IMG/VR virus record: IMGVR_UViG_3300006164_000041
Location: 1 to 25,469 of that record
Strand: one strand, 5' to 3'
DNA length: 25,469 nt
DNA from: a virus
Lineage: Duplodnaviria; Caudoviricetes
Part shown: in pieces, positions 7,565 to 25,469 of the stretch
Position numbering within the stretch: position 1 is the stretch's first letter
How the letters are laid out: every line of letters begins with the position of its first letter
The notes under the pieces: generated by a model
The model's database searches: none
Told to the model about the DNA's origin: nothing
Seen by the model: the letters and a program-made list of their open reading frames with translations, nothing else
Position numbers and translations under genes: made by a program

Positions 7565-7933
7565 ATGAAAGAATATTTAATCGAAGAAATTGTTTCTGAA
7601 ACTTACGAAAAACTGGACGTTCCAAGAGATAGATCAAGAATAACAGATAGAGCTCAGACTAGGGCAGCTGTTGGACAGGCTTTGTCTGTTCATTTTAATC
7701 ACAGCCAAATTGCAAAATCTTTAAAAATAGATAGAACCACTGTTAGTCACTACAAAAGAAACCATAAAGAAAATCTTAATCATTGGATTGGGTATAAAAA
7801 CAAATACGAAGTTGCAGAGTACATAACAAAAAACAAAGTTTATCTTGATGTTTCGGAAATAAGTATTGAGTCTGTAAAAGAACAAATAAAAAACCTACAG
7901 AGAAAGCTTGATTATTTAATGCTGTCTGTTTAA
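7565..7933 (+). CDS. DnaA C-terminal-like HTH DNA-binding protein with coiled-coil tail
   Basis: RSR....R...HSQIAKSLKIDRTTVSHY resembles DnaA domain IV (RDHTTV). Confidence 0.6.
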   Translation: MKEYLIEEIVSETYEKLDVPRDRSRITDRAQTRAAVGQALSVHFNHSQIAKSLKIDRTTVSHYKRNHKENLNHWIGYKNKYEVAEYITKNKVYLDVSEISIESVKEQIKNLQRKLDYLMLSV

Positions 7934-9538
7934 AGATTTGTTTTCTGCTAATCTGGATATGAGGTTGGTGGGGTTTTTTAGTTTAAGAACTCCGCCACCT
8001 TCGTACTCTTCCTCTGATTGCGAAGCAGAAGACCCAATTGCAATGGGAGTTAAAGACATTAAGTTGTTTAAAAGGTGTTGAAGCGTTTGAATTTTATCGT
8101 CTACATTGCCTCCTCTTAAGCTTTTAAAAAATTCAACCCCGCCTCTAGGCACCCTTGCACCTAAAACATTGTATGAGCTTTTCTTCATTAAGTCTTCTAC
8201 CTTGATGTCGTCTCTCATTGTAAACTCTATCCATCTATCTAGAGCTTCTTTTGTTTCTTCTGTATTCCATTTTGTGTTGGTTGTTACAGGTTTGTTTGTT
8301 GCCACCTCAGCTAACAACCTCATCTCCATTACTCTGGCTCTAATCTCTTCAGGCTCAGTAGTTTGGGGGTAATTAGGGTTTTCTTGAGTATACTTTTTAA
8401 GTATCTGCAAGTCTCCTGACTCTTCCATAAAAGTTCCAAGAGTTGTATGATCTATTTCATGAATCATAGTTAAAAACGGATCTGGATCTGAAGGGTTTAT
8501 TGTAATCAATCGGTCATTTGCACTGTACTTAGAAATAGTAGCTTTTCCAACAGAGTTCTCCATAAACTTGTATCTTACAGGAACGTCTAAACCTTTTTTT
8601 ATTTTATCGTACAGTATCGAAGCAGCTTTTTGTGGGTCGTTGACTTGCAAATATTCTATATCTGGTAAACCATCGTCTCCCTCAACCATTTCAGACGGGC
8701 GAGTAGCTTTAGGTTTTGCTTGAGCTGTCTCTAGTTTGGTTTTTATTGCAGGATCGTTTAAATAATTCTTCATCCAATCTAAACCTTTTTCCGTATCTGC
8801 AAGTAAACCTTCAGTAACTCCGTTTGAACCGTAATTAGTAAGATTTGTTGATTTTAGATTTATTGAACTAAGTTCTTTCTTAGCTTTTACACCTTTGTTT
8901 AACTGTTTAATAACGTTAACCTTATTTTCGTTATCTGAAAAGATACCTAAAGACCGTGTTTGCGGGGCTCGCTTACCAAGTACACTCTTCCAAACGTTTG
9001 CTGTAGGTTTAGCCCCTAATAAAAACAGAGCGTTCCATGCTGCATCGCTTAATTCATCCCAAACATTATTTAAATCGCTTCCAGAAAGATTGCCGTTTTT
9101 AAAAGATTGTAACAAAACTTTATCAGCTTCAGTTAAAGACTCATCAATTTTCAGTACACTTTCTGCAAACGTAGCTGGGTTTAAAACCTGAGCAGTAAAG
9201 TCCATAGCGCCGTCAGGCGTTGAATCCCATTCAGCTGGAGTAGGTTTTCTGTATTCTTCTGACTCTCCTAGTCCAGGATTACTTATAGCCCATCGAGCAG
9301 CCTTCATAGGGTTTGACAACATACTTAACCAAGAAACTGTTTCCTGTTCATCTGGAGCCTGTGATAACCTGTCTGGTCGAGACAATAAACGTACCTCCTC
9401 TTGAGGCAGTCCAGGCATAACAACGTTAGTAGATTCAGAAACTAACCCATCAGGAGGCCAATGAACACCACCGTGATCGTAACTTTTTTTAACAGACCTT
9501 CGTCCTTTTTTTTTCTTTTTGTTATAAATCACTACCAC
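7916..9538 (-). CDS. Putative virion cargo protein with zincin-like metallopeptidase domain
   Basis: HEIDH (HExxH) plus downstream PEEIRAR; YxxGG motifs near both termini; GTG start. Confidence 0.65.
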   Translation of the reverse strand: MVVIYNKKKKKGRRSVKKSYDHGGVHWPPDGLVSESTNVVMPGLPQEEVRLLSRPDRLSQAPDEQETVSWLSMLSNPMKAARWAISNPGLGESEEYRKPTPAEWDSTPDGAMDFTAQVLNPATFAESVLKIDESLTEADKVLLQSFKNGNLSGSDLNNVWDELSDAAWNALFLLGAKPTANVWKSVLGKRAPQTRSLGIFSDNENKVNVIKQLNKGVKAKKELSSINLKSTNLTNYGSNGVTEGLLADTEKGLDWMKNYLNDPAIKTKLETAQAKPKATRPSEMVEGDDGLPDIEYLQVNDPQKAASILYDKIKKGLDVPVRYKFMENSVGKATISKYSANDRLITINPSDPDPFLTMIHEIDHTTLGTFMEESGDLQILKKYTQENPNYPQTTEPEEIRARVMEMRLLAEVATNKPVTTNTKWNTEETKEALDRWIEFTMRDDIKVEDLMKKSSYNVLGARVPRGGVEFFKSLRGGNVDDKIQTLQHLLNNLMSLTPIAIGSSASQSEEEYEGGGVLKLKNPTNLISRLAENKSLNRQH

Positions 9539-9801
9539 TTAACTTTGTTAGCCCAGTAAGCTGCAGAGAGAATTCCACGAGCTATATTTTTAGCATGCCT
9601 AGCTTTAAAAGCTTTATTACGTTTACTTCCGTCAGGACTTCCAGTTTTTCCCTGCTGTCCAAAACGAATCAGTTTTGTTTCACTTCCTTTTTTAGCTACA
9701 ACAACGTGAGATTTTGTTTTATGACTTGGAGTTCTTTTGGCTTTGTTGTACCCAGAGACTCCCGCTATAGTTAATTTAGAATCTTTCTTTTTTACTTTCA
9801 T
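9532..9801 (-). CDS. Small, highly basic conserved phage protein
   Basis: KLIRFGQQG...FKARH...SAAYWANKVKW pattern typical of a widespread phage family. Confidence 0.75.
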   Translation of the reverse strand: MKVKKKDSKLTIAGVSGYNKAKRTPSHKTKSHVVVAKKGSETKLIRFGQQGKTGSPDGSKRNKAFKARHAKNIARGILSAAYWANKVKW

Positions 9802-10163
9802 TAGAACGAGCTCATTAAAATTTCATCCACTGCATCTTGAACATCTCTCTTGCTAGCTTCTAGCTGCATCATAATATTTGCTTGAAACCTTTCAACTTCT
9901 TCACCGTCGTTAAATATTATAACGGTAGGAACTACAACGATTTTATGTTTCTTCTGCATGTCAGGAGAAGATCCTATGTCCACCCTCCTTCCTTTACAAT
10001 CGCTTAGTTCATCTATCCATACAACACTGTTAGAGGAATTAAACCCAGCATTAAACTCTACTACACATAAGCCTTCATCAGGTAGATAAGGACGTTCAAC
10101 AATAGGGGAGTGAACTGCGGGAGCCAATAGAATTAGCCAAAAGGTAAGAATTAAGGTTTTCAT
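9801..10163 (-). CDS. Secreted thioredoxin-fold protein lacking CxxC
   Basis: Signal peptide; VVEFNAGFN at the position of VDFWAxWCxxC; VVPTVIIFNDGEEVERF cis-Pro motif. Confidence 0.7.
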   Translation of the reverse strand: MKTLILTFWLILLAPAVHSPIVERPYLPDEGLCVVEFNAGFNSSNSVVWIDELSDCKGRRVDIGSSPDMQKKHKIVVVPTVIIFNDGEEVERFQANIMMQLEASKRDVQDAVDEILMSSF

Positions 10164-10169
10164 AAGTTG

Positions 10170-10448
10170 TTACTTTAGTTCATCAATTTTTCTTTCAATG
10201 TTTTTAAGATCAGCTTTTATTTCAAGAACATCTTCTTGTGTAGTCATGATCGTCTGACGAACCAGCTTGTCCTTCATGTCAAACTCCATACGTGTGATCT
10301 CAGGATCAGGAGGAATAGGCAGTTCCATTGCTCTCGCTATGTCTGCTTGAAGTATAAACCACATAGAGATTACAGTCACCATCGCCGTCCCTATCCCTAT
10401 CAATGTTTTTACATTTATTGTAAAACCTGTATTCTCATCTAACTTCAT
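10170..10448 (-). CDS. Single-pass membrane protein with C-terminal coiled coil
   Basis: Transmembrane segment LIGIGTAMVTVISMWFIL; heptad tail VLEIKADLKNIERKIDELK. Confidence 0.7.
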   Translation of the reverse strand: MKLDENTGFTINVKTLIGIGTAMVTVISMWFILQADIARAMELPIPPDPEITRMEFDMKDKLVRQTIMTTQEDVLEIKADLKNIERKIDELK

Positions 10449-10453
10449 ACCTA

Positions 10454-11545
10454 TTATTTTATTACGTAATTAACACCCATTGTTAAACTCCCGTATGGTC
10501 TTCCCCAATACTCACTAAAATTACCCTCCGTAAAAACCCCTAAATGTTTACCTATGTTTGCTCCAAATACAATACCTGCGTTGTAGTCTATCCAGGAGTT
10601 ACCTACAACTCTACCGTAAGAGTATTCCCACTCCCCAAACTCTTTGTGATAAGGCATAACATTAGCCCAAGTGTGCAACCAAAAGTCTTTAGAGTAGTGG
10701 TAAAAGTCAACCCCTACTGCAGCTGATATCTGGTATTGGTTTGGTAGTAAGCTTCTTACATCCCTGTTGTAATCGTTAACGATCTTCCCGTATTTGTATC
10801 TTCTAAACTCGGAGTCGGTTTCTGCCACTAAGTTACCTTCAGGCCCGTACCATTCCCAATCGCTCCACTCCCCATTAGTATACTCCCCGTCATCGTTAGA
10901 GTCAACGTAAACCCAGCTGTCTGTATAGTTGTAATCATAAGCCAACAACCACCACGCCCCTGAATTTTCTTCTATCCAGTCTTCAATAGGTGCTACGGTG
11001 TAGGATGGATGCCTACGACCCGCTACACCTGCAGTAAAATTTAGTTTTTTACCTACCTTAACGCGTAACTTTAAACCAGCTTCTAAATACTTTATATCCG
11101 CTCTTGCGTTCTCTAGGAAGTCAAGCTCTGCTACGAACCATTTAGAGAGGTGTCTAAGGAAGTATCTCTGGTCTATAGACTCTCTACCCGTAAGCCTTAC
11201 CTCCGAGCGCTCAAACACGTACTCAAAACCGCTTACGCTACCTACGTTAGCTTCTTCCGACATGGAAACTTCAGAACCGTCATAGAAGTTCTTTGCTTTG
11301 ATTTCGTATTTAAACCTAGCTAACTTTCTTAACCCTACGGAAAAAGTGTAGTTTGGCTCATACTCCATAGGCAGAACTGTTAATACGCCATCTCGAACAG
11401 CATAGACATCATCCTGAACCATAGAGTTCGATTGATTAAAAGAAGCGTATAATGTACTGTACTTAAAAAAATCTTTTATAACCCCTTGAGCGCTTACAGG
11501 AAGGATAAATAACCAAAGAACATTTAAAAAGAATAGTTTTTTCAT
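10454..11545 (-). CDS. Predicted outer-membrane beta-barrel protein
   Basis: Signal peptide ending VSA|Q; many alternating amphipathic strands; aromatic-rich; terminal strand GSLTMGVNYVIK. Confidence 0.6.
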   Translation of the reverse strand: MKKLFFLNVLWLFILPVSAQGVIKDFFKYSTLYASFNQSNSMVQDDVYAVRDGVLTVLPMEYEPNYTFSVGLRKLARFKYEIKAKNFYDGSEVSMSEEANVGSVSGFEYVFERSEVRLTGRESIDQRYFLRHLSKWFVAELDFLENARADIKYLEAGLKLRVKVGKKLNFTAGVAGRRHPSYTVAPIEDWIEENSGAWWLLAYDYNYTDSWVYVDSNDDGEYTNGEWSDWEWYGPEGNLVAETDSEFRRYKYGKIVNDYNRDVRSLLPNQYQISAAVGVDFYHYSKDFWLHTWANVMPYHKEFGEWEYSYGRVVGNSWIDYNAGIVFGANIGKHLGVFTEGNFSEYWGRPYGSLTMGVNYVIK

Positions 11546-11559
11546 TTTTGCCTATATTA

Positions 11560-11730
11560 TTAAGTAATCACTTGTATTGATCTAATTAATTTCTCAGTTA
11601 ATACCGTAGAGCTTGCCGCTAAAGGTTTTACAGATATAGAGGGAGTGCTTTTTTTAAAATTTACAGCAAGGCTTCCGCTAACGGATACACTAATAGTACT
11701 TTCAAGGGATGTGCTTATAGATATACTCAT
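11560..11730 (-). CDS. Small Ser/Ile/Val-rich protein (56 aa, MSISISTSLESTISV...)
   Basis: Hand-translated; TAATG coupling to the upstream gene; beta-strand-like composition. Confidence 0.6.
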   Translation of the reverse strand: MSISISTSLESTISVSVSGSLAVNFKKSTPSISVKPLAASSTVLTEKLIRSIQVIT

Positions 11731-12230
11731 TAGTTCTCAAACGCTTCAGTAATATCTGGGTTAACTATAAATTTACCTCTTAAAACAGTTCTATGAGTGT
11801 CCAATCCAGAACTGTTAGGTAAGATGTATTGCAAGTCATATGAATAAGAACCAGAAGGAACTTTACTCATAGTTTCCGCAGATGCTTTTATGGTTACATT
11901 TCCCACATCGTCTAGTGTAGGTGCTTCAAATGTATTGCGTCCAGAAACAGAAGGTATTTGTATTGCTGGAGTCCTAGTCTTTGATTTGACTCGAACTTGA
12001 TCTTTAGCGGCTGCATTAGGAGTGCCTAGTATTAAAGATGAAACACTAGATCTTCCTCTTTTGCTTATCTCTTTAGATTTTACTTGCATTAAAAAAACAT
12101 ACTCACTTGTAGATAACGTGAGTAGAGTACCCGCTGAATCTTTTAGAGTAATTGTAATAGAAAAAGTATCACCTTTTCTACAGGTTATATTTAATACATC
12201 TGAAGTATCTAAATTTACTGAACTAGCCAT
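11730..12230 (-). CDS. BppU-N-like (Ig-like) tail/baseplate-associated structural protein
   Basis: RKGDTFSITITLKD...YSYDLQ...VLRGKFIVNPDIT pattern. Confidence 0.6.
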   Translation of the reverse strand: MASSVNLDTSDVLNITCRKGDTFSITITLKDSAGTLLTLSTSEYVFLMQVKSKEISKRGRSSVSSLILGTPNAAAKDQVRVKSKTRTPAIQIPSVSGRNTFEAPTLDDVGNVTIKASAETMSKVPSGSYSYDLQYILPNSSGLDTHRTVLRGKFIVNPDITEAFEN

Positions 12231-12231
12231 T

Positions 12232-14670
12232 TTATTCGTTTAATAATGCATTAATTAGTTTGTTTGAGCTTTCAGGCAACTCACTTCTTTTTCCTTGTCT
12301 TTGAGAAATCAGCTTGCTTTGATCGGAAGTCTGTTGGTCTAATCTATCGTCTTTTCGAGTCTCTTTTAAAACCTCTAACTTTTCTTTAAACTCTTTGTCG
12401 TCTTCTTTAAACCCAAGTGTAGCTTGAGCTTTAATCATCTCAATCTCCTTTTTAAACTCATGACGCATTTGCTCCATCTTCATGTTAACCTCAGCCTCCA
12501 TCTGTATCTTCTGTCCTTCAAATTGAGCTGCTGCTTGCATCTCACTCATTTTAGCCTGTTGAGATTGTTGAGCTATTTGAGACTGAATTTCCGCTTGTTG
12601 TTTTGAGTTTTGCATAGCCATCTCTTGTCGTAAAGCCATACGTTTTTTACGCCTAACAACTAAAAGTCTTTCCGCTTGATTAATATCCTTGAGCCCACGA
12701 ACAGCTATAGCATCTTCTAAGTCTAACTCCTGCTGTTGTAAAGCCATCTGAATGTTTTGTTCTAAATAGGCTTTATCCTTTTCCTCCATGTCTTTAACAA
12801 CAACCACCCCAAAGTTATACATTGGGAGATCTTTAAAAGAAGCCAAAGCTTTCATGTTAGTATCCCCTATAGCGTTTTGATAAACTTTATAAAGAACAGA
12901 CTCAACGGGGATAATTTGAATGCACTTAACTATATCCTCACAAACCTTTTTAAATAAGATCATTGAAGCATTAGTTATATCGTAGATGGCGTTATTCCCT
13001 GCAGCTATGGCTTGTTGTTGAACACCAACCAAAGCATCCCCTTTGGGAGAAGAAGCATCCATAGCCTCATTAATACCCGTAGTGTCTCTTATTAAACCTA
13101 AGTAATGATTATACAAACCTATAAGCTCGTTAATATTCCTTATGCTATTGCCTATCTCTCGTACTGGAGGGTTTTGAAATCCACCTTCTGGGTTTTTACT
13201 TCTGTAATAAAAAACACCAGTTTGCTCGTATATATCGTGAAGGTCTAGAGGTTGTAGATCTCCCCCTTTACCTAATTGAACATTTTCTAAACCTTCTATG
13301 TCTATAATTAAACCGTCTGGTTTAGCTTTTGCTATAGCTTGCTGTATTTTTAAATGAGTCAGTTGAAGCATGTCAGCAAACCCTACACAGCTATCTACCA
13401 TAGACTTAGGCATCATGTTCCGAAGGTTTGTAGCCGTTACAGAGTAGGATAGTCTAGCCTTAGATATATCGTGAATATTTTTAGGTACATTTTTAGTCTT
13501 ACCGTAACCAAATAAATAGTTGCAACCTAAAACGTAGCTACCACCATAAACTGTAGATATCTCTAATTTATGAGGGGTACGTTCAAATACGCTGTTTTTA
13601 TTGGCTCTCGCTTCAAAGCCTTTAAAGTAAAAACCAGTGTTCCCATGTCGGTTTTCTTTCTCCTCAAAATGTATACAATCAACAGCAATAAACTCAAAGT
13701 CTAAAACCTCAACCATATACTCATCATAACCAAAACCAGTAACACCTAAGGCGTCATTGTAGCTTTTTTTATTATACTTACTGGAGTCGTTACCGTTACG
13801 ACCTTTAGATTTCTCTGCTATCTTCTGAAAATCCTCTTCAGAAAGCTCACCCCCTGAAATGCGTTTTAACTCCTGTATGGAGATTTTTTTAATATGCCCA
13901 GCATATACAAGGTCGTCGAAATTTGGATCTTCTGTATGACTATGTATAAACATGCAAGGATCTACATAAGATGTTTTAATACCCTCATTAGGGTCGTTAG
14001 ATCTTTTTACTACAGACATACCTAATGTGGCTAGATCATTAACGCATCTACGGAATGTATTGTCAACAAAATTATTCCAAGTAAGAGTAAGCTCTGTACC
14101 TAATTGAGCAGAAATCTCTCCGTCGCTTTTAATGTTGGTGTCAAATAAAATCTCCGCTTCTTCTGGTGTGTCTGGAATAGAGTCTGGATCCATATCTAAA
14201 ACAACCCCTGTCTTATCTTTAAGTTCTTTTAACTTACTTTTAGACTGAACCTGCATTAAAACCTTTTTCTTTTTTTCATTCTTTTCAGAAGAAGACAAAG
14301 GGTCTACAGCCTCTAAATTAGGATAAGGGTTTACAGATAAGATCTTATTGACTACAATTCTAACAAACTTAGGCAGAATAGGAACTGGAGTGTAATCCAT
14401 GTTCAATAAAGCTCCATCTGCTTTGTTAGGTTGAAGAGAGTTTAATAACTGCTTGTATATACTTGTATCTTGTACTCCAATAGCATAATCTCTATCTTTC
14501 TCAAATATTCTGTTTCGCTTACCTACTAAAGAAGATTCGTCAGTAGTCTTTCCCCATTGAGACTCAATAGCTCTTGCGTATTGAATACCATATTCTTTAG
14601 ATTGCTTTTTCTCCGTAGACTCTAGTGGACTAGGAAACCCTTGCTTACTTTTATTGTTGTTATTGTACAT
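12232..14670 (-). CDS. Portal protein
   Basis: 812 aa directly downstream of the terminase; YTPVPILPKFV motif and Gln-rich C-terminal coiled coil. Confidence 0.85.
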   Translation of the reverse strand: MYNNNNKSKQGFPSPLESTEKKQSKEYGIQYARAIESQWGKTTDESSLVGKRNRIFEKDRDYAIGVQDTSIYKQLLNSLQPNKADGALLNMDYTPVPILPKFVRIVVNKILSVNPYPNLEAVDPLSSSEKNEKKKKVLMQVQSKSKLKELKDKTGVVLDMDPDSIPDTPEEAEILFDTNIKSDGEISAQLGTELTLTWNNFVDNTFRRCVNDLATLGMSVVKRSNDPNEGIKTSYVDPCMFIHSHTEDPNFDDLVYAGHIKKISIQELKRISGGELSEEDFQKIAEKSKGRNGNDSSKYNKKSYNDALGVTGFGYDEYMVEVLDFEFIAVDCIHFEEKENRHGNTGFYFKGFEARANKNSVFERTPHKLEISTVYGGSYVLGCNYLFGYGKTKNVPKNIHDISKARLSYSVTATNLRNMMPKSMVDSCVGFADMLQLTHLKIQQAIAKAKPDGLIIDIEGLENVQLGKGGDLQPLDLHDIYEQTGVFYYRSKNPEGGFQNPPVREIGNSIRNINELIGLYNHYLGLIRDTTGINEAMDASSPKGDALVGVQQQAIAAGNNAIYDITNASMILFKKVCEDIVKCIQIIPVESVLYKVYQNAIGDTNMKALASFKDLPMYNFGVVVVKDMEEKDKAYLEQNIQMALQQQELDLEDAIAVRGLKDINQAERLLVVRRKKRMALRQEMAMQNSKQQAEIQSQIAQQSQQAKMSEMQAAAQFEGQKIQMEAEVNMKMEQMRHEFKKEIEMIKAQATLGFKEDDKEFKEKLEVLKETRKDDRLDQQTSDQSKLISQRQGKRSELPESSNKLINALLNE

Positions 14671-14704: not shown

Positions 14705-14709
14705 GTAAA

Positions 14710-16827
14710 TCATCCGATTACTTGATATCTCCTAAAGAATTGTTTTTCAGTTAAGTCCGAAGCCTTTTTAGTTTTAGATTTTTGCGCTCCTAATAGAGCT
14801 AATCCAGAACTAATAGTAAGGTCATACTTAGTTCTATCGTCTATTTTGTATCCTATCCAGTCTTCTAATGTTTTGTTAAAATACATTTTTCCAACCTCTC
14901 CTGTCTCTCTATTTATACCTACGTGATCATGTATAAAGGCTTCAATAGCATGAGCATGAGCCTGAATTACATCTTGAGAGTTTGAAGGAATGCCTTTTGT
15001 TTTAGACTTACTACCGCTTGCGCTAAGTAAATGTTTAGGTCTATCCATTAGGTATCCATCATAACCCCTTGACTCAAAGTACCTTGCGATACCGTACTTA
15101 TTGTTCTCAATTAAGATAGGGTAACCATAAAAAACCGCAGCCATTAAAACATCTTCATAGAATATTTTTGCTAAAGGAGGCCTAGAAGCATACTCTAACA
15201 CAAACATATTAGAAGGGTTCTCTATATGGAATTTGTTATATAGATGTAAAGCGCCTTTAGATCCTCTGCCATCTACCGTAGCATCCAAGTCATATGAGTC
15301 TACTCCACCTACACCGAAGTCTGGATGTGGTGGAACACGTTTTCCTCTTTCTGTTCTTTTCTGATTGCGAAAATCAACAGGAGGCATCCAAGCAATTTTA
15401 AACCTACCCTGAGGGTTTGGGTTAAACACTACCTCAGTGTCTTTTAAACCTCCCTTCCAAGTAAAGTTACCTTTAACTACAGGGTTTGGAAAAAGCTCAT
15501 CATTATGTTCAACTTGCTCATATATTTGACCTATGTTAAATACACTTCCATCTATACTATCTCTAAAGGCTTCATCCTCCGTAAAAGGAAACTGTCTTAC
15601 TACCTCGTTCAACTCTGAAGCGTCATTTTTCAATGAGTCTCTTTCGTTCTTTAGAAAAGTTTTTGCACCTGTGTAAATATACTCATCGTCTATTCCCTCT
15701 ATGGTTTCTGACGGGTCTTCAATAATTGGACAACCATATTTATCAAAGAAGCCTTCTAAAGACTCGTAAGCAGGTATAAAAAGTCTATACAATCCCGTTC
15801 TAGTCCTGCCATTCTTGTTCCTCTCCAAAGGATTTGAATCCTCCCATAGATCTTTGTACTGACTTCCCCCTTTGTTCATTGGGTTTACCGTGCTTCCTAC
15901 CATTGCTTTCCCTACGATTTTTCTTCCGACGATCAAACACGTCCTCTGAATCCTCCAAGCGTCCCTTATGTCTGTAGGTCTTTCCCATTTTCCTGCTTCA
16001 TCTAGATATAACAAGTGAAGTTTTTCACCGTCATATGCGTTATTAGTTGTGTTTTTCCAGTTTATAACTGTATTAAGAGCCTCTCCTATATGTGAGGTTT
16101 TGTTCTTTTTTGTTATACGTTTTGAAGGCTCTCTAAAAGCTAGCTCCATACGTGGGTTCGTTGTACCGTCCTGTATGGGCTTAAAGAAAAAAGGATAGTT
16201 TCTAAACATAAACACCACCTTTTTCATAAATATATTCTCTTGAGCGTCTTTACCAGTTTTAGACTGTATACCTAAAAGCTTTTCTTTTACTTGCGTTCCT
16301 TCGTCTACAAGGACAGCAGAGCACATATTGGTATAACCAGATCTACGACACTTAGTGTATAGCTGACCGATACATCTAGGGTCAACTTCACAAGCAGCTA
16401 AGTGTGTAAAAATATCTTTTTGAAAGTTTAAAAAATAAGGGTAACCAATATCTAGCTTGGTCCACTGAAGCATCATGTAGTGCCTCCCCGTAATATATGT
16501 AGGTGTACCGTTGTTATAAAACCAAAAACCCTCACGCCTACGCCGAAATTCTTCCTCGATATATGGACGAAACCTCGCTCGGAACTCTCTTGGCATTTCT
16601 TCCCACTCATCCATAGAACGAATACGAGACAGTTCCTTCGGCATAGATATCCTTCTCCACATTTGCACAGAGTTTGCGTCTTTATATCCAAAAATTTCTT
16701 TCTTCGGCGGCCTTTTCGGAAGACAAATGAGTAGCCCACTGAGTTCGACAATCTCACCTTCCGTACTATTTGGGCAAATTTTAATTGCTGGATCTTCATA
16801 TTCCTTTACGTCTAATAAGACACTCAT
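14710..16827 (-). CDS. terL: Terminase large subunit
   Basis: Walker A-like KCRRSGYT, Walker B LLYLDEAGK, coupling motif GST, RNase H-like GGVDSYD, IENN and YDLTIS. Confidence 0.92.
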   Translation of the reverse strand: MSVLLDVKEYEDPAIKICPNSTEGEIVELSGLLICLPKRPPKKEIFGYKDANSVQMWRRISMPKELSRIRSMDEWEEMPREFRARFRPYIEEEFRRRREGFWFYNNGTPTYITGRHYMMLQWTKLDIGYPYFLNFQKDIFTHLAACEVDPRCIGQLYTKCRRSGYTNMCSAVLVDEGTQVKEKLLGIQSKTGKDAQENIFMKKVVFMFRNYPFFFKPIQDGTTNPRMELAFREPSKRITKKNKTSHIGEALNTVINWKNTTNNAYDGEKLHLLYLDEAGKWERPTDIRDAWRIQRTCLIVGRKIVGKAMVGSTVNPMNKGGSQYKDLWEDSNPLERNKNGRTRTGLYRLFIPAYESLEGFFDKYGCPIIEDPSETIEGIDDEYIYTGAKTFLKNERDSLKNDASELNEVVRQFPFTEDEAFRDSIDGSVFNIGQIYEQVEHNDELFPNPVVKGNFTWKGGLKDTEVVFNPNPQGRFKIAWMPPVDFRNQKRTERGKRVPPHPDFGVGGVDSYDLDATVDGRGSKGALHLYNKFHIENPSNMFVLEYASRPPLAKIFYEDVLMAAVFYGYPILIENNKYGIARYFESRGYDGYLMDRPKHLLSASGSKSKTKGIPSNSQDVIQAHAHAIEAFIHDHVGINRETGEVGKMYFNKTLEDWIGYKIDDRTKYDLTISSGLALLGAQKSKTKKASDLTEKQFFRRYQVIG

Positions 16828-17253: not shown

Positions 17254-17481
17254 TTATACGCTATTCTTTTTTTTAGGTCTATTGTTAGCTCTGTTTATAG
17301 ATTGAGCTTGAGGTCTAGTCTTGCCCCCTTTATCAAAATGAGCCTCGTCTAATCCGTCTCCGTTTCCGTAGGTCCCTTTTTTTCTATTAATCTGATTTAA
17401 ATTCGCACGATATTTCTTAGCTTTAAGCTTAGACCCGTATTTAGCGTACTCTTTTTTATAATCTCTTTTTATAGCTTTCAT
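17254..17481 (-). CDS. Small basic protein with degenerate HNH-like motif
   Basis: RDYKKEY...GDGLDEAH...SINRANN. Confidence 0.65.
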   Translation of the reverse strand: MKAIKRDYKKEYAKYGSKLKAKKYRANLNQINRKKGTYGNGDGLDEAHFDKGGKTRPQAQSINRANNRPKKKNSV

Positions 17482-17843: not shown

Positions 17844-18133
17844 TATTTCGAGAATCTTTCAGCAAACCCACCTGAATAGTCCTTTATGTCTTTTATGTCT
17901 CCGCTTACTTCAAGGTCTTTAACCATTTGAGCTAACCTTTGTCTTTCAACAATAAGCTCTTTGCAGTCTGTAGCAGTTTGTTTTATAGACTGAAGCTCTG
18001 CTTTACGAGCACTACCGTTGATTTCAGGATCTACAGGTTTTTTAATCTCTTCGATCATATTATCTATAGCTGTCTCCATGCTCTTCATAAGCCTTTTAGA
18101 AGCACTGACTGTTGTGAATTTATATTTCGACAT
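17843..18133 (-). CDS. Helical protein, possible terminase small subunit
   Basis: Short coiled-coil protein upstream of terL ending GFAERFSK; the function is a positional inference. Confidence 0.45.
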   Translation of the reverse strand: MSKYKFTTVSASKRLMKSMETAIDNMIEEIKKPVDPEINGSARKAELQSIKQTATDCKELIVERQRLAQMVKDLEVSGDIKDIKDYSGGFAERFSK

Positions 18134-18716
18134 ACATTAAATCTTCTGCGCGGGTTCGGTAATATTCCGTTCCGTCTATAGTTATACGATAATCTCTGTT
18201 TTGCTTAAACCCTACAATATCTCCTGGGAGAACACCCATCTCGTCAGCTTCTGAACATGTGTATACGACCTCTGCTTTTGTAGGTAGTTTTTCTTGCAGG
18301 TCTACTATTTCTATAATATCCGATTGAAGAGTCAGCTCCTCTTGCTCAACTGATTTCAGTAAACACCACCCCGTAAGACAACGTATCTTTCCGTCTTTTT
18401 TGCTCTTGTATGCTATAGCTTGATTGCTAATTGCGTGAACTGGGTCATAGTTTACTATATACGTGTTGTCCTCTTCTGTGAATATCTGACCGTTGTTATC
18501 TCCACCAAGAACTACTAGATGATGAAAGTATAATGTATCTCCTATTTCTACACCTGTTTCGTATTTAAAAGGTACACAAACTACTGGGCCTTCTGTTGTC
18601 CTGTTTTTAAAGTCGTCGAACCTAGCGTCTATATATAACTCAAATCCTGTATCAGAAGTTATAGTGTCTTTAAGCCTATCCTCTAGCTTAACAACAAATA
18701 AATTAAAGGTTTTCAT
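18120..18716 (-). CDS. Tandem GroES/Cpn10-like co-chaperonin
   Basis: Two units: GPVVCVP...VEIGDTLYF and AEVVY...GVLPGDIVGF...ITIDGTEYYRTRAEDL. Confidence 0.7.
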   Translation of the reverse strand: MKTFNLFVVKLEDRLKDTITSDTGFELYIDARFDDFKNRTTEGPVVCVPFKYETGVEIGDTLYFHHLVVLGGDNNGQIFTEEDNTYIVNYDPVHAISNQAIAYKSKKDGKIRCLTGWCLLKSVEQEELTLQSDIIEIVDLQEKLPTKAEVVYTCSEADEMGVLPGDIVGFKQNRDYRITIDGTEYYRTRAEDLMYVEI

Positions 18717-18719
18717 GTG

Positions 18720-18959: not shown

Positions 18960-18960
18960 T

Positions 18961-19293: not shown

Positions 19294-19310
19294 AATATAC
19301 TATAGATTAA

Positions 19311-19733
19311 ATGCCTAAAAGTAAAGTGCCTAAAAAAAGGCTGTTTAGAGAGTTCTCTCCGCAAGATAAGAAATATATTCGCAGAAATTATCTAAAGAAA
19401 CTAAAGACTGTAAAACATTTTGTTAATAAAGAATATGACATAAAATTCGCTTCTGTAGAGTTTTTGCTGTGGGGGTATGACCTTCAGTTCTTTACAATAA
19501 AATATGCTTCGAAAAGCCTTCTTATGAACAAGAATAATACTCAAAACAGGTTTATATATCCGTTGGTAAATAAAGGATATCTATATAAACATTTTGATAA
19601 ACTAACTCCTTCTCAGAGTTTTGAAGACCACTTATTCAGAGAGGAGACTAAGTTTAATTACCGAGTAAGGTATGCTTTAACTCAGAAAGCTAGGCTACTT
19701 GTTCAAAGAGTTTATAGGGATCTTGAAGATTAA
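19311..19733 (+). CDS. Winged-helix (MarR-like) putative regulator
   Basis: IYPLVNKGYLYK...RVRYALTQKARLLV matches the MarR-type helix/wing signature. Confidence 0.6.
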   Translation: MPKSKVPKKRLFREFSPQDKKYIRRNYLKKLKTVKHFVNKEYDIKFASVEFLLWGYDLQFFTIKYASKSLLMNKNNTQNRFIYPLVNKGYLYKHFDKLTPSQSFEDHLFREETKFNYRVRYALTQKARLLVQRVYRDLED

Positions 19734-20221
19734 ATAGATAAAGGGTCTAAGACTAGAGCTTTGGAAAAGTCTCTGTATGTTATAATTACATCTCCTTCTG
19801 AAAGGGCTTCTGCTATTTCTTGGTACACTCTATAATATGCGCGTGTCGAACTTCCAATAAAACCGTCTTTTTTTACGTTGTTGTTTTCTTGCGAATCACC
19901 CAGTAGTAAACAACCTGCAGTGTCCTCATCAGTATTACCGCAATGAATAAGAATATGAGTAAAATTAGGGACGTTAAGGATTTCAAGCATTCCAACATGT
20001 ATGTCAGCAAACCTGTGAGCGTATTTGGCGTCAAAACCACCCACAGTTCGAAAACCGAGACAATACTCTCCTTCAGGTATACAAGTTTCTTTATAAACCT
20101 TTTTGGTGCGGCTCTCATCTTCGAGAGTATAACATAAAAATTTTCTTTCATTTGTTACGTCAAATAGTATTCCGTTAGTCGAGTCCTTTCCTTTGTTGAA
20201 CCTTATTACTTCTAGTCTCAT
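19730..20221 (-). CDS. DUF5675 / YkuD-like L,D-peptidase, candidate endolysin
   Basis: CYTLE, CIPEGEY and ILIHCGNTDEDTAGCLLLG (His...Cys catalytic motif). Confidence 0.75.
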   Translation of the reverse strand: MRLEVIRFNKGKDSTNGILFDVTNERKFLCYTLEDESRTKKVYKETCIPEGEYCLGFRTVGGFDAKYAHRFADIHVGMLEILNVPNFTHILIHCGNTDEDTAGCLLLGDSQENNNVKKDGFIGSSTRAYYRVYQEIAEALSEGDVIITYRDFSKALVLDPLSI

Positions 20222-20306
20222 TTTTAATTTTATTTAGTCTAGTTTTCTCGGCTTCTTTTGCAGCGTCTCTTCTTTTACGTACAGGGTTGAAATAGAACTT
20301 TTTCAA
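20175..20306 (-). CDS. Possible small basic protein (43 aa, TTG start, KKFYFNPVRKRR...)
   Basis: Hand-translated ORF filling the gap between neighbours. Confidence 0.35.
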   Translation of the reverse strand: MKKFYFNPVRKRRDAAKEAEKTRLNKIKNETRSNKVQQRKGLD

Positions 20307-20582
20307 TCAACCAAATTGTCCACAGCTCCCGCCTTCACAATGTCCTTCTTGTTTCTGCTGAAAACCTTTTTTTATTTTTACTTTATTTCTTTTGCCTTTT
20401 TGTTTTTTACTCCTCATCATAAGTATATATGCGTCTAATCCAGCTTGTCCGCGATTCCTGAACCTAGCAGGGATCATACCTTCTTCATCTTCTTTTTCTT
20501 GTTTTCTTTTTTCCCTTCTAGTTTGCTCTTCTGGAATATCCCAGTGCATACCACCATGCTCATATCTTTTTATAGGTTTCAT
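20307..20582 (-). CDS. Small basic protein with N-terminal YEHGG motif
   Basis: MKPIKRYEHGGMHW; TAATG-coupled to the upstream gene. Confidence 0.7.
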   Translation of the reverse strand: MKPIKRYEHGGMHWDIPEEQTRREKRKQEKEDEEGMIPARFRNRGQAGLDAYILMMRSKKQKGKRNKVKIKKGFQQKQEGHCEGGSCGQFG

Positions 20583-21043
20583 TATGAAGCTATAAAAATC
20601 TCCATTGTAACGGCATTAGTTCCTGGGTCTACAAGTATACTTTCTAAATCAGTTAAAGCTGTAACAATATCAGCGTTTGCATCAGATACAGATATACCGT
20701 CATGAACAGCGCCCATGATGTAAGATGTTCCCGCAGCTAACAATATAGTAGCAGACATATTTTCCGTTCCATTTTCACCCCCTGAAACTTGTAAGGAAAG
20801 GTTTACTGGTTGGGCACCAAGATTTGTTACTCTTAAATACTTTGCATCTTCTAAATCTAAAGCGTTATCGGTAGTGCTTGTTAAAGTCTGGAATGTAGCT
20901 ATAGTAGTATCTGAGGACGCTGGACAAGTAACTATCCTATGATAAACTTGAGTAACAGAAGATACAGCAAGAGTGTTTGTAGAACCCCTGTCAGCACCAT
21001 TGAGTGTTAACTCTTCAGTTATAGTGACGTTTAAAGTAGCCAT
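20582..21043 (-). CDS. Putative beta-rich virion structural protein
   Basis: Thr/Ser/Ala/Val-rich with almost no Lys; YLRVTNLG strand; late-block location. Confidence 0.6.
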   Translation of the reverse strand: MATLNVTITEELTLNGADRGSTNTLAVSSVTQVYHRIVTCPASSDTTIATFQTLTSTTDNALDLEDAKYLRVTNLGAQPVNLSLQVSGGENGTENMSATILLAAGTSYIMGAVHDGISVSDANADIVTALTDLESILVDPGTNAVTMEIFIAS

Positions 21044-21046
21044 GTA

Positions 21047-21322
21047 TTATTGCATCTGCATAGGAGAAGGAGGTATATTCATACCAACACTTTCCCCGCT
21101 ATTGTTTAGCATTTTCTCTTTAATCTCCCCAACAGTTACTTCATCTGGAATACCAAACGAATCTAACATCTCCAACAACATACTCACTTCTGGTGATGAT
21201 CCTCCTTGAGATTCTCTTTGCATTTGACCTTGCATTTGACCACCCATGTTGTATTGTGGCACTTGGCCTCCAACTAAATATTTTGGTGATTGACCACCCA
21301 TGTTGTATTTTTTAATCTGCAT
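21047..21322 (-). CDS. Small protein with three tandem YxxGG motifs
   Basis: KYNMGGQSP-KYLVGGQVP-QYNMGGQMQ. Confidence 0.7.
   Translation of the reverse strand: MQIKKYNMGGQSPKYLVGGQVPQYNMGGQMQGQMQRESQGGSSPEVSMLLEMLDSFGIPDEVTVGEIKEKMLNNSGESVGMNIPPSPMQMQ
21236..21309. repeat. 27-nt-period coding repeat with a perfect 20-nt direct repeat
   Basis: TTGACCACCCATGTTGTATT at 21236-21255 and 21290-21309 (54 nt apart). Confidence 0.85.
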
Positions 21323-21338
21323 AACTTTTTATTTTTTA

Positions 21339-21346
21339 CAAATATA
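21339..21346 (-). promoter_or_regulatory. TAnnTTTG (-7) promoter element
   Basis: TATATTTG on the minus strand, identical to the element before portal, 16 nt upstream of ATG 21322. Confidence 0.5.
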
Positions 21347-21351
21347 AGGTA

Positions 21352-21504
21352 TTATGAACCACACCCTTCGCACTCATGCGGAGACTCTATATTGCAAGTT
21401 GTCTCTCCAGACTTTATTTTATCCTCTTGTTTTTTTAACTTTTCTGGGTTAAGGAAAGAAGGTTGATCGAACTCTTCGTTAGGGTTGTTAGTTTTGTTAT
21501 TCAT
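21352..21504 (-). CDS. 50-aa peptide ending CNIESPHECEGCGS
   Basis: Hand-translated ORF missed by the track; fills the gap exactly. Confidence 0.7.
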   Translation of the reverse strand: MNNKTNNPNEEFDQPSFLNPEKLKKQEDKIKSGETTCNIESPHECEGCGS

Positions 21505-21508
21505 TTAG

Positions 21509-22147
21509 TTAAAAGTCTTTATGGATAAATTGCATGGTGTTTTCATCTGGAAACATAGGTAGGAAAAACGAATTCGAAGGTTTATCTTTAGGTTCAGGGT
21601 CTGGCATATTTTCTTGAGTGTGCTTAAAGGACGCTCGTCTCGTCTCTTTATCCTCATCCTTCCCCCTCCAATGACCGTCAAGCCATTGATTATCCCACTG
21701 AGACTTATCAGTCAATATAGTAGCTATGGAAGTACTTGGAGATTTTGCAATATTAGCCGTAAACAGAAGATCTTGTATCTCTGGGGAAACCTTATCCATG
21801 TTCTTAAAATCCTCGTTAGTTAGTTCAGGAATACTGTAGCCTCTATCGGTAGCTATAGTTTTTAATCTATTATAAGCTGTTTTAGCTGATTCTTCGTCAA
21901 ATTGATATCTCCCTTTTCCTGGACCTCCTCCTATTTGACTAGCGGAATAAGCCCCAATACCACCTTCATGAGTACCTACTAAATCCCTAAATTCAGAGAA
22001 TTCAAAAATAGGAGAATCTACACTAGAGGATAATATGCTGTCTAATTTAGCTGTGTTAAGATCTCCATGAGGATGTCCAGGACCTTTCCCTCCGTTATGG
22101 AACTTCCTCACCCTCATACCTGGAATAGTTCTTCTATTTATATTCAT
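21509..22147 (-). CDS. Lysozyme-fold (muramidase-like) putative virion protein
   Basis: Helix-end Glu (GTHEGG), GPGKGRYQF and SPEIQD motifs; N-terminal KFHNGG. Confidence 0.65.
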   Translation of the reverse strand: MNINRRTIPGMRVRKFHNGGKGPGHPHGDLNTAKLDSILSSSVDSPIFEFSEFRDLVGTHEGGIGAYSASQIGGGPGKGRYQFDEESAKTAYNRLKTIATDRGYSIPELTNEDFKNMDKVSPEIQDLLFTANIAKSPSTSIATILTDKSQWDNQWLDGHWRGKDEDKETRRASFKHTQENMPDPEPKDKPSNSFFLPMFPDENTMQFIHKDF

Positions 22148-25100
22148 CTTATAGACTTAAGGATTAAATCCCTTTGTTCTTTAGTAAACTTATTACTCAT
22201 AAACTTCATTAAACCTCTCATATTATTAGTAGGGGAAGGTATATTTTTCAATTGAGAAAGTATTTCCTCAAACGAAGCGTTAAAGTTAACTCCTTTTTCT
22301 TTTGCTGCATTTACACCTGTGTCTAATACCGCCTCAAACTCTTCCCCTTTACCTAAAACATACTGACCAGCAGGATTGAACGATCTATCGTCAACCATAT
22401 TTCTCCCGCTAGTAAGCTCTCTATATGCTTTTCTCTTTGATGGGTCTTGTATCCTAGCGCTCCTTTCATCATTCATTCTTTTAGCTAAGCGTTGTAAAGG
22501 ACCATATTGTGTTGCATGTACCTGTTCGTGCTTAAGTGTATCTGGATCATCCTTATACATAACGATCTCTTTCTCTCTAGGATCGTACTCCCCTTGCATC
22601 ATAGGGCTGTCAGCCCCGTAACTAGCAAGCATTTCTAATACCTCCTGGCTACTAGCATCTCTAACAGGTGTTTTCTCTATTCTACGATCAGCCCTTCTTT
22701 GTCTTAGTTTTTTAAAAATACCCCCACCGTCTTGATATTTTTTTACAAGCTTATTTAATAACCCCCCTTTTTTATATGTCTTAATCTCTAAAGGTTTAGA
22801 TGGGTCTGTTTGGAAGAACTTTTCTGGGACTACGACACGGTTGTATGTATTACCAAACTCATCCGTAAAGGGAATAGCATCTGTACCAAATGTGCTTTTA
22901 AATAATTTAGGGGTATTTCTGTAGTCTTCGGTTAAAGAATAGAACTCTGCCATCTTCTTTTTCTGTTCGTCTGTAGGGTTCTCCCCACCTATATCTTTAA
23001 TATCAAAAGGGCGAGATTTTATATTATCTATTTTCTTTTGACTTGCTTTATACTTTATTATATTCTCTTGTGCTTTTTTAGCATCTAAAGATTTAATCTT
23101 TTTAATCTCAATTAAGTAGTTCTTTTTTAGATCATTTACTTTTTTTGAAAAAGTCAACGGTTTTATACCACTATCGTATTCTACTGCCATTGCCTGTTTA
23201 AGGTCTAAGTACATATCCTCAAAATCCGCACCTTTATTTAATTTATAAAACACACCTATAGCAACGGGGTTGTTCTTTTCAATACTATTAATTAATAGAT
23301 CGTAAATTACCTCTTTTTCTTTAATTGTATTTTTTATTAACGCCTCTACACCAACTCTGGACTCGACGTTATTAATAGCTTGAATTCTTTCGTTTGTCCC
23401 ATCAAGCGAATATGAACTTATACGTGGGAAATTAGTATCATAAAGCTTAACTATGTCAGATTGTTCCTCATATAAAGGATCTAACTTAACATCATTAGGT
23501 TTTGTCCACCCCTCAATAGTAAATACCGTTTCCGCTGTAGGTACGTCTAAATACTTCTTACCTTGTCTCGCAGCATCTAAAAGAGACTCGTTTAAAAACT
23601 TAAGTGAGAGGCCTTCTGCAGCGGCTTCTACCTCCTTAAAACTAGGTGTTTTCATAGCTTGCTTTCGATGGTCTAATGCTATTTTTAAACCTTTCTCCAT
23701 TTTTGCTAAAGTATCTTCATAACCTAATTCGTTTCCTTTATAATCTCTCTTTAGGTTTTTTATTTGATGTTTAAATATTTTAATCTGCTTATCTACACTA
23801 AGCATTACATCTGGATCCCCATCAAAGACACTCCCACTTATTTGCTCAGGATAATAATCTGCAGCCTCTTTAGATCCTGGAAGGACATTTGAAGGAATTT
23901 TTAACTTCCCTACATCCGTTTGCCACTCTAGGATTCTTAATGAGTTTTCATAAGGGAAACTTCTTATCCAGAAGCTATGAGGAGTATCTGGGAAGTGACT
24001 CTCCCCTTCTTTTGTTAACCCTAAAGAAGCATCTTTATAAAGATTAGTTTTTGTGGTTATATTATACTTCCACTTTCTATACTCTGACAACTCTGGGATC
24101 CCTACATTAGAATATACATTTGTAGGTATAATATCAGCAGAACGTATATCTAAAGCTAAAGACTGTTTAAAATTTTCATACGGGATCCTCTTGCCTTCAA
24201 ATTCACCTAAAACATCTTTAACAGCTGTAGCTTCACTAGTTCTAGTGTTTTTATTCTTTACTAACTGTTCTAATGCAGATCTAGCTATAGTCCCGTCTTT
24301 AGGTGAAACCTGCTTCTCTATCTTACTACCCGTCATAAACGATGGGTATTGGTATACACCAGTATTATCGACACCAAAACCGAGTTCGCTTTGTATATCT
24401 TTAGCTCTTTTTAGAGCATTTTTAAAATTGTTTAATTGGGAGGTATAGTTATTAATATCTGCTGCTCGATCACCCCAGGTGTCATAATGAGCTTCGCTTA
24501 TTCCTTTCTCTAAACTTACAATGTTGTTTTTAATAAAATCAATCTGTTTATTTAGCGTCTTCATGCCCGTTTTATCAGAACCACCATAGAGTTGAGATAC
24601 TTCTTTACTAAAAGGGATTGATGAAGTAGATGTGGTTTGAGCCACATTACTCTCCTCGTACGCATTCACAGGTTCGTATTTCTTATTTTTTACTTTAGGT
24701 TTTTTGCCAGCTAGTTGTTGTAAAGGGTCCTGAGAAGCTGCTGGTTCAGTAATAGACGATATAAGCTTAGGGTTTGCCTCTTCAGCAAGATTAAACCACT
24801 CTTGTTCTGCCTGAGTCATCTTTCTCCAGTCCTTTGCCGTATCATCCCATAGGAAAGTACCCTCTCCAGCCGCCCCTCTTTTAAATCTAGCTAATGTTTT
24901 AGCTTCTTGAAAGGCTTTTATTGAAGCTGGGATACCTTTTCTAAGCATACTTATAGCTGGAACACCCATTAATGCATCCCATGTTACATGAAGGGCTTGA
25001 CCAGGAGAAGGGTTCTCTATAAACTCCCCTATAGCTTCTGGCGTCTCTGTAATCATATGATTAAGCCCCATAGCACTCAAGACATGATGCCCCGTTAAGC

Positions 25101-25469
25101 CTTTTAAACCTGGTATAGCCCAAGTCATAGGGGTATATAAAGTATTAAATCCGCTCCCTATTAACCCTAATCCACCAGGTGCAGCTGCAACGGCAGGTAC
25201 AAGAGAGGCTAGAGTTGTTCTCCAATCACTTGTAACATTAGATCCGCCGCCTGGAAAGCCATACATCTCCATAGAAGCCCTTTCTGATCCACTTAATTCT
25301 CTGTCAAACCCGTAATTAGGCTTAGGTATTAAGTCTATTTTCTTCTCTTCAGGTAGGACTGGTGCAGTGTATCCTGATGGTTGAGTACTCTCAGATACTA
25401 AGCTAGATAACACCTCTTTATCCTTAGGATCTGCACTTCCAAATGCATTTAGCATCTTAAGCAAGTCAT
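22144..25469 (-). CDS. Large multidomain putative virion cargo protein with C-terminal zincin domain (5'-truncated)
   Basis: Frame is open to the window edge; hydrophobic Gly/Ala N-terminal segments; SHF...R...ILEWQTD core; double YxxGG; HEQVH. Confidence 0.7.
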   Translation of the reverse strand, partial: DLLKMLNAFGSADPKDKEVLSSLVSESTQPSGYTAPVLPEEKKIDLIPKPNYGFDRELSGSERASMEMYGFPGGGSNVTSDWRTTLASLVPAVAAAPGGLGLIGSGFNTLYTPMTWAIPGLKGLTGHHVLSAMGLNHMITETPEAIGEFIENPSPGQALHVTWDALMGVPAISMLRKGIPASIKAFQEAKTLARFKRGAAGEGTFLWDDTAKDWRKMTQAEQEWFNLAEEANPKLISSITEPAASQDPLQQLAGKKPKVKNKKYEPVNAYEESNVAQTTSTSSIPFSKEVSQLYGGSDKTGMKTLNKQIDFIKNNIVSLEKGISEAHYDTWGDRAADINNYTSQLNNFKNALKRAKDIQSELGFGVDNTGVYQYPSFMTGSKIEKQVSPKDGTIARSALEQLVKNKNTRTSEATAVKDVLGEFEGKRIPYENFKQSLALDIRSADIIPTNVYSNVGIPELSEYRKWKYNITTKTNLYKDASLGLTKEGESHFPDTPHSFWIRSFPYENSLRILEWQTDVGKLKIPSNVLPGSKEAADYYPEQISGSVFDGDPDVMLSVDKQIKIFKHQIKNLKRDYKGNELGYEDTLAKMEKGLKIALDHRKQAMKTPSFKEVEAAAEGLSLKFLNESLLDAARQGKKYLDVPTAETVFTIEGWTKPNDVKLDPLYEEQSDIVKLYDTNFPRISSYSLDGTNERIQAINNVESRVGVEALIKNTIKEKEVIYDLLINSIEKNNPVAIGVFYKLNKGADFEDMYLDLKQAMAVEYDSGIKPLTFSKKVNDLKKNYLIEIKKIKSLDAKKAQENIIKYKASQKKIDNIKSRPFDIKDIGGENPTDEQKKKMAEFYSLTEDYRNTPKLFKSTFGTDAIPFTDEFGNTYNRVVVPEKFFQTDPSKPLEIKTYKKGGLLNKLVKKYQDGGGIFKKLRQRRADRRIEKTPVRDASSQEVLEMLASYGADSPMMQGEYDPREKEIVMYKDDPDTLKHEQVHATQYGPLQRLAKRMNDERSARIQDPSKRKAYRELTSGRNMVDDRSFNPAGQYVLGKGEEFEAVLDTGVNAAKEKGVNFNASFEEILSQLKNIPSPTNNMRGLMKFMSNKFTKEQRDLILKSIR

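Follow-up and report, generated by a model that had tools for sequence, protein, structure and literature searches.

A transferable [YF]xxGG tag on late proteins of an uncultured podovirus clade, a candidate address for head cargo

Introduction

Why should several dissimilar late proteins of one phage carry the same five-residue motif? The question was raised by a 25,469-nucleotide stretch of viral DNA, IMG/VR record IMGVR_UViG_3300006164_000041 (positions 1 to 25,469; hereafter the window), which represents a 42% complete genome. Its replication genes occupy the plus strand and its late genes the minus strand. A first-pass annotation had noticed the motif [YF]xxGG in these late proteins and had proposed that it is a portable signal that directs cargo into the head, marks it for cleavage after Gly-Gly, or both. 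With slightly more belief than doubt, we read the motif as a tag that directs accessory late proteins and the first core ejection protein, C1, into the procapsid via a receptor, probably a small domain at the C-terminus of C1, with possible trimming before the glycines.

The portal and terminase of the window match 87 phage records, all at less than 60% identity. The matched phages comprise Elemovirus, Pachyviridae, Pervagoviridae, Panino, Gundel and MW202828, and from these groups we infer a Bacteroidetes host. Five near-complete relatives (G001-G005), with terminases 74-91% identical to that of the window, supply the head and tail module absent from it, including scaffold-like, capsid-like and tail genes. 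In these relatives a crassvirus-type muzzle (PF25729/PF25731) is followed by three genes ordered as crAss001 gp45-47, here named C1, C2 and C3. The C1 gene lies outside the window and is known from relatives. Two sets of relatives were used: 186 loci in which complete open reading frames (ORFs) were called mechanically and clustered at 90%, and the C1-centred loci L197-L275, whose unique sequences were left unclustered and which have some contigs in common with the first set.

The tag marks the N-termini of diverse late proteins

Across the 186 loci, the strict motif, [KR].{0,2}[YF]xxGG, fell within the first 25 residues of 88 of 1106 non-redundant late-strand proteins, compared to a mean of 3.25 and a maximum of 6 in 20 shuffles. 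Among the ORFs of the opposite strand, many of which are spurious, none of 768 had an N-terminal copy and 0.8 were expected. The 88 tagged proteins represent 44 families, and 58 of the sites lie at residues 6-10. The consensus is M-[KR]-[IV]-[KR]-[KR]-[YF]-x-x-G-G, in which the two middle residues are free and the positions after the glycines are unconstrained. Some proteins contain tandem arrays of up to five copies. In the C1-centred loci, an N-terminal tag was found in 35 of 65 C1 proteins, immediately ahead of the hydrophobic helix. The corresponding counts were 1 of 543 among the remaining late proteins and 1 of 265 among ORFs of the opposite strand. The N-termini of capsid, portal and tail proteins lack it. 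Internal matches in the capsid (FTRGG), tail-tubular and terminase families are fold-related and were not counted as tags. The motif was not described in the literature searched, subscription journals and some supplements aside, in keeping with the earlier statement that no functional description was known.

Tagged N-termini do not resemble export signals: signal-peptide-like starts were seen in 0 of 88 tagged proteins and in 64 of 1018 untagged late proteins. As a separate observation, three late phage genes (L084:3721-6195, L089:5274-7343 and L089:7343-8575) combine such starts with a C-terminal sorting domain for type IX secretion (PF18962), and their products are apparently addressed to the type IX secretion system of the host.

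Motif copies in the window and their homologs

All nine pentapeptides of the first-pass annotation were found on the minus strand, at or beside the places it gave, and seven of the nine have K or R within two residues upstream, as it had claimed. Three further matches, FDKGG, FPGGG and FGVGG, bring the count in the 23 late window ORFs to 12, against a shuffle mean of 2.14. The strict pattern occurs 7 times with 0.71 expected, and none of 1500 shuffles reached either 12 or 7, so the proposed enrichment over shuffled late proteins was borne out. The reported absence from plus-strand proteins is correct (0 in 16 ORFs), but with only 0.42 copies expected it is little informative.

The 540-aa protein (7916..9538, minus strand) joins an N-terminal module of the giant-protein family to a C-terminal zincin-like region with an HExxH sequence (HEIDH). 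Near its N-terminus, YDHGG (9467-9481) follows the basic run KKKKKGRRSVKKS, and the same motif heads the homologous module in the giant proteins of relatives, to which the N-terminal half is 28-40% identical. The second copy, YEGGG (7991-8005), is doubtful. It lies 27 residues from the C-terminus in an acidic context, and EEYEGGG of the window reads EKEYEGSG in the near-identical P0001. Only one database relative was found for the zincin region; the HExxH is present as the label implied, but the label has no Pfam support. The layout resembles that of phi14:2 gp81, although the pairwise comparison was not significant (E=0.1).

Two 91-aa ORFs carry tags. YEHGG (20550-20564, minus strand) occupies residues 7-11 of ORF 20307-20582 and is present in 7 of 7 homologs listed, the first of which is identical to the window protein. 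ORF 21047-21322 has three tandem tags at 9-residue spacing (21239..21307, minus strand), YNMGG (21293-21307), YLVGG (21266-21280) and YNMGG (21239-21253), and one to three copies occur in 5 of 5 homologs listed. A tenth candidate, FDKGG (17323-17337, minus strand), lies in the 75-aa ORF 17254-17481 (phrog_6437). Twelve of its 13 listed homologs have [YF]xxGG with variable middle residues, and four add a second copy near the N-terminus, but this copy may instead be part of an HNH-like hairpin.

FHNGG (22088-22102, minus strand) is in the leader of the 212-aa ORF 21509-22147. The leader is predicted to be disordered (mean pLDDT, the model's per-residue confidence score, of 46 over residues 1-20) and its tag occurs in 21 of 23 aligned family members. 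In P0024-P0027, four further proteins, the same leader precedes an SLT domain (PF01464), so it is found on two different catalytic bodies. In the model, helix 50-62 ends with the invariant E61. Calling this body a lysozyme domain, as had been done, is a weak lead: in a Foldseek search, MltE and phi6 lysin were matched only at E 1.7-2.0, with MltE (E=1.7) the best row of lysozyme fold.

The giant modular protein (22144..25469, minus strand) is cut by the window end. Its intact 1354-aa counterpart in L147 starts MPRVRKYHNGG, the same leader as that of the 212-aa protein. A pair of tags, YKKGG (22762-22776) and YQDGG (22723-22737), marks the junction that leads into the C-terminal HExxH module, and the 11 listed homologs of the giant have equivalent tags at the same junction. 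FPGGG (25243-25257, minus strand) is in the same protein. In the giants of relatives, motif copies flank modules that are found elsewhere as stand-alone tagged ORFs; for example, the SLT-type module ending the L161 giant is a separate tagged ORF elsewhere. Not all of the "five unrelated proteins" of the first-pass annotation are in fact unrelated: the N-terminal half of the 540-aa protein and the leader of the 212-aa protein are shared with the giant family. The remaining match, FGVGG (15304-15318), is in the terminase large subunit (14710..16827, minus strand; phrog_6681, E=5.9e-207) and is probably fold-related. The portal protein (12232..14670, minus strand; phrog_6547, E=7.8e-190) is untagged.

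A domain at the C-terminus of C1 is the best candidate reader

C1 was identified by its place after the muzzle homologs and by profile matches to structural-annotated proteins of phi38:1 and phi19:3. In relatives its gene is directly behind the muzzle gene and its product has a hydrophobic N-terminal helix, as in crassvirus C1. In the tag-bearing clade, C1 ends in a domain of about 65 residues with an invariant His, Glu, Thr-Gly and Glu. Elemo, phi38:1 and phi19:3 have short C1 proteins that lack this domain. The AlphaFold model of the domain is confident (pLDDT 89) and the motif lies outside the fold. A GG occurs at most 40 residues upstream of the domain in 46 of 52 fused copies, and 21 have [YF]xxGG.

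The domain was found in 35 of 55 records (30 selected by the domain, plus G001-G005), in 0 of the 14 selected by capsid similarity to MW202828 and in 0 of 6 GenBank phages. The strict tag pattern was found in 31 of the 35 domain-positive records compared to 2 of the 20 domain-negative ones. Pattern matches in the domain-negative G010, G014-G016 and G018 are inside the giant C3 protein, with none at N-termini. More telling than this record-level co-occurrence is G045, in which a stand-alone ORF of 67 aa encodes the domain immediately upstream of two tagged ORFs. The G045 portal groups with those of the tag-less G008, MW202828 and Elemo (support 1.0; FastTree, 13 sequences), a lineage otherwise negative for both domain and tag. 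This suggests that domain and tag were gained together independently, and it makes the C1-tail domain our best candidate for the tag reader. At the level of sequence, we regard as established the enrichment, N-terminal position and portability of the tag, its presence on C1, its absence from capsid, portal and tail N-termini and its co-occurrence with the domain. In a side observation, G037 (L369, L370) has two tail/ejection modules and two C1-tail domains, reflecting either duplication or a chimeric assembly.

The domain also recalls the portal-bound domain of crAss001 gp45. The two are at similar gene positions and have a common S-H-E-x-N / G-E pattern, and the ESM Atlas gave a lead of 0.88; homology is suggested on this basis. 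VIA structure searches with the domain model returned generic helical hairpins only (best Z 5.5), with gp45 not listed, and sequence searches linking the domain to gp45, T5 pb2C or lambda gpH were negative. The profile PF25725 (CARG1) matched 2 of 25 records, both crassviruses, and, at the level of individual members, 0 of 54.

Crassvirus virion proteins have similar GG sites

In crAss001, gp45 was detected by virion mass spectrometry (MS) and partly resolved by cryo-electron microscopy in capsid and tail, and the cargo zone is largely unresolved (PMC10172136). The protein has eight GG variants, at 20, 209, 263, 332, 373, 427, 562 and 828, which lie at module borders; shuffled sequences gave 1.2, with a pattern that was fitted after viewing the sequence. 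Its portal-bound modelled segment, 425-552, starts at A425-F-G-G (PMC10172136). This implies an unbroken bond after the glycines there. Four quoted gp45 peptides are tryptic and none spans a motif, so they do not decide on cleavage, and the portion of the report available to us does not mention the GG motif for gp45 (PMC10172136). Proteins gp80 and gp81 of phi14:2, annotated from MS/MS, have similar GG sites, two of them ahead of HExxH modules.

Three side observations concern these phages. Similar tails of GG followed by polylysine end proteins of G003 and G005 and crAss001 gp45: RYGGVVPKKKKK, LNGGRIRSVKKRKK and AKGGKVRTKKKK (L091:7220-8062, L098:12439-14145 and L104:26988-29516). In phi14:2 (L106:33984-37142) the CARG1 profile is split, with positions 16-74 in gp81 and 75-126 in gp80. 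Finally, crAss001 gp75-78 (L108:16583-21066) have ThiF and metalloprotease annotations and form a ubiquitin-like cluster that could act on di-glycine; it was not seen in G002/G003.

Any cut is predicted before the glycines

The first-pass annotation had invoked cleavage after Gly-Gly by a protease like those of adenovirus, African swine fever virus (ASFV) or the C39 family, and had called for a search for a co-occurring protease. No Pfam of the adenain, pS273R or C39 type was found at E<=0.001 among the 147 proteins (ORFs of at least 62 aa) of two near-complete relatives, G002 and G003, a search that could miss a remote protease. Nor was any prohead, cysteine or JAB protease family found among them, and ubiquitin-like JAB/ThiF machinery was set aside as it is absent from both. 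Of the families common to G001-G005 but absent from tag-less relatives, none has a protease label. The tagged zincin-like domains were rejected as a general processing enzyme on account of their patchy distribution: HExxH is absent from G001 ORFs and from tagged proteins of G003-G005. With post-GG residues unconstrained and the gp45 model spanning the glycines, cleavage after Gly-Gly is unsupported.

Mapped cuts in other ejected phage proteins point to a different position. T5 pb2 is cut after R1127 (PMC10038345) and the host peptidase OpdA removes a 20-residue leader from P22 gp7 (PMC8402733). In sequence these cuts read R|AEGG and E|KGG, so that mature gp7 starts K-G-G. Read in this way, the two mapped cuts beside GG fall one or two residues before it. 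By chance, a boundary would lie 1-2 residues ahead of a GG with a probability of about 5% in gp45 and gp7 and 0.8% in pb2. By analogy, any cut of the tag is predicted just before the glycines, not after, and it is an evenly balanced question whether the tag site is also trimmed there. In lambda gpH, FATGG occurs at 733 and YATGG at 778; both the position of its cut and the enzyme responsible are described as unknown (PMC12617516). Three other papers, in the parts available, treat zincin domains or tape-measure cleavage with no such motif (10.1101/2020.03.07.982082, PMC13434306, PMC11972413).

A model for loading, and its rivals

We propose that the tag, at N-termini and module joints, would address proteins to the interior of the procapsid for later injection by docking on a receptor present in the head during its assembly. 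The best candidate for this receptor, the C1-tail domain, may ring the portal like the portal-bound domain of gp45. Tandem copies could strengthen binding through avidity, and internal joints would retain tags after genes had fused. Trimming before the glycines, by a host peptidase (as OpdA on gp7) or by the His/Glu domain, might then free leaders and modules. Binding, packaging and cutting are all inferred steps. The portable head-cargo half of the first-pass proposal is thus favored by the position and portability of the tag, by its restriction to C1 and accessory late proteins and by the crassvirus GG variants, while the cleavage-after-GG half is not.

Several points weigh against this model. 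Packaging of the window proteins is a prediction from sequence. The N-terminal copy is missing from 30 of 65 C1 proteins, and many likely internal proteins are untagged (C2, C3 and most small basic ORFs, e.g., 9532-9801). Elemo, phi38:1 and phi19:3 have no N-terminal tags in 50-kb stretches, so the tag is not required for ejection as such. The co-occurrence of domain and tag is confounded and inflated by kinship and by incomplete records: the domain itself was the selection criterion for 30 of 35 positives; 12 of the 14 negatives selected by capsid similarity are less than 90% complete; and crAss001 and phi14:2 count as domain "negatives" despite their GG variants. In the giant family, 47 of 276 homology breakpoints lie close to a motif versus 30.1 expected, only a modest excess. 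Profile searches gave no sequence match of the C1-tail domain to crAss CARG1. Finally, P22 can largely do without the gp7 leader, and its ejection proteins load via the scaffold rather than the portal (PMC8402733).

Another possible explanation is that the motif is a maturation cut site only, at which either a host oligopeptidase or the His/Glu domain of the C1 tail cleaves 1-2 residues ahead of GG, with loading via the scaffold and basic tails on DNA. The starts at R1127|A-E-G-G, K-G-G and A425-F-G-G agree with it, as do the internal copies separating swappable modules, the C1 tags right ahead of a hydrophobic helix and the invariant His and two Glu of the domain. We nevertheless consider it unlikely: the T5 and P22 sites are analogies rather than demonstrated homologs and carry, with gp45, the coincidence rates given above, tandem arrays at 8-9 residues and tags on 50-75-aa proteins are ill-suited to mere cut sites, and the free domain ORF has no motif. 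The disordered leader, the position of the motif outside the C1-tail fold, the flanking basic runs, the repeats and the mostly unresolved cargo zone of crAss001 (PMC10172136) could also reflect a generic basic-aromatic-Gly-Gly sticker or hairpin hinge, acting in DNA binding, in a disordered cargo phase or in easier unfolding at ejection, with no specific receptor. The tight [YF]xxGG spacing with free middle residues, the single copies at residues 6-10 and the co-gain with one domain are more suggestive of a shaped binding site, and we hold a sticker to be improbable.

We give slender credence to a relic of duplicated gene starts, in which a promoter or ribosome-binding site and the first codons were copied onto new genes with no protein function. 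Some neighboring genes do have leaders that are near-identical over 15-25 residues, and internal copies resemble fused starts, but the pattern is held at the protein level with free middle residues and varied codons, the distance from start codon to tag varies, and the tag is kept where portals share only about 70% identity, and also in a separate lineage. Least credible to us is the phage-encoded adenain-, pS273R- or C39-like protease cutting after Gly-Gly. The invariant GG, the basic leaders and tails, the polyprotein-like giants and the HExxH in two tagged window proteins are what it would predict; the protease search in G002 and G003, the lack of a protease label among the families common to G001-G005 but missing from tag-less relatives, the HExxH distribution and the gp45 model spanning GG all count against it.

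A broader version of the loading model can be framed, in which ejected proteins of crassviruses, of the present large aquatic clade of podoviruses and of P22-like phages, as well as the tape measures of T5 and lambda, would all bear one x-[x]-x-G-G code, and the His/Glu/Glu domain would be a portal-mounted reader that recruits cargo and cuts before GG. We think this quite unlikely. If true, gp45 would be a polyprotein that is cleaved into its modules, which would account for the separation of its tail-barrel (214-245) and portal-bound (425-552) segments with no need for the chain to thread the portal. Lambda gpH would then be cut at F733/A734, yielding a C-terminal piece of about 12.5-12.7 kDa compared to the roughly 14 kDa reported.

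How podoviruses choose head-carried proteins is poorly understood, and P22 ejection proteins load via the scaffold without a defined signal (PMC8402733). What is new here is the N-terminal tag statistics, a candidate reader with an apparent independent co-gain and the suggested link to gp45. A transferable tag with a candidate reader would provide a rule to predict injected cargo in an abundant uncultured clade, whose wider capsid family is estimated at about 5,900 stored stretches. It suggests that a hypervariable set of muralytic, HExxH and small basic proteins is injected. The idea is testable in the culturable crAss001 and phi14:2, with residue-level predictions for gp45 cleavage and the lambda gpH cut position.

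Neighboring genes

Other features of the locus were noted. In this part of the window (7916-12230), replication genes begin right after the 540-aa gene, and the block of scaffold, capsid, tail and ejection genes found behind the portal in G001-G005 is missing from this place, reflecting a different gene order or a rearranged assembly. A minus-strand cluster at 9801-11545 contains three ORFs, one thioredoxin-like (weak PF00085) with a signal peptide, one for a small membrane protein and one of 363 aa that is secreted and rich in aromatic residues; it is conserved in G002-G004 and is possibly a host-envelope module. Just upstream of the terminase, a 198-aa GroES-like protein (18120-18716, minus strand) is kept in all relatives, including cultured ones. 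A conserved plus-strand gene inside the late cluster (19311-19733), also in G002-G005, is a possible regulator. G005 has two terminase-portal sets (L096, L100), from duplication or a chimeric assembly.

Comparison with known systems

The closest parallel is the capsid-targeting sequence (CTS) of phage T4, a leader of about ten residues at the N-termini of IPI-III and Alt, which are unrelated, variable late proteins, with a proposed role in prohead loading. The present tag is likewise a short N-terminal leader common to unrelated late proteins, portable across 88 proteins of 44 families. Unlike the T4 leader, which ends at a Glu cut site, it ends in GG with no conserved Glu in its logo, it also occurs internally and in tandem, and it belongs to a phage with a P22/crAss-type portal and scaffold head. 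No gp21-type prohead protease Pfam was found among the 147 G002/G003 proteins, and the domain proposed as its reader belongs to an ejection protein. By this analogy, we are likely dealing with a T4-CTS-like cargo tag in a podovirus without a detected protease.

Adenovirus protease, ASFV pS273R and C39 peptidases are dedicated cysteine proteases that cut after glycines. Their substrates resemble the tagged proteins in having di-glycine in basic core-like proteins and leaders, but no such cysteine protease was found among the same 147 proteins. P22 gp7 and T5 pb2 (pb2* and pb2C) are ejected proteins cut right before x(x)-G-G, and in gp7, as in 35 of 65 C1 proteins, a basic leader precedes the GG, a likeness of pattern only. 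In contrast to the tag, these are single sites in single proteins and not a common cargo signal. Crassvirus C1 (crAss001 gp45, PF25725; phi14:2 gp80/gp81) shares several features: a post-muzzle gene, GG variants at module borders and a compact His/Glu domain after GG. Homology of the domains went undetected by hidden Markov model or fold search. The crassvirus variant is mostly x-A-[FYEK]-G-G in one or two proteins, whereas in the present clade the tag is carried by dozens of separate ORFs.

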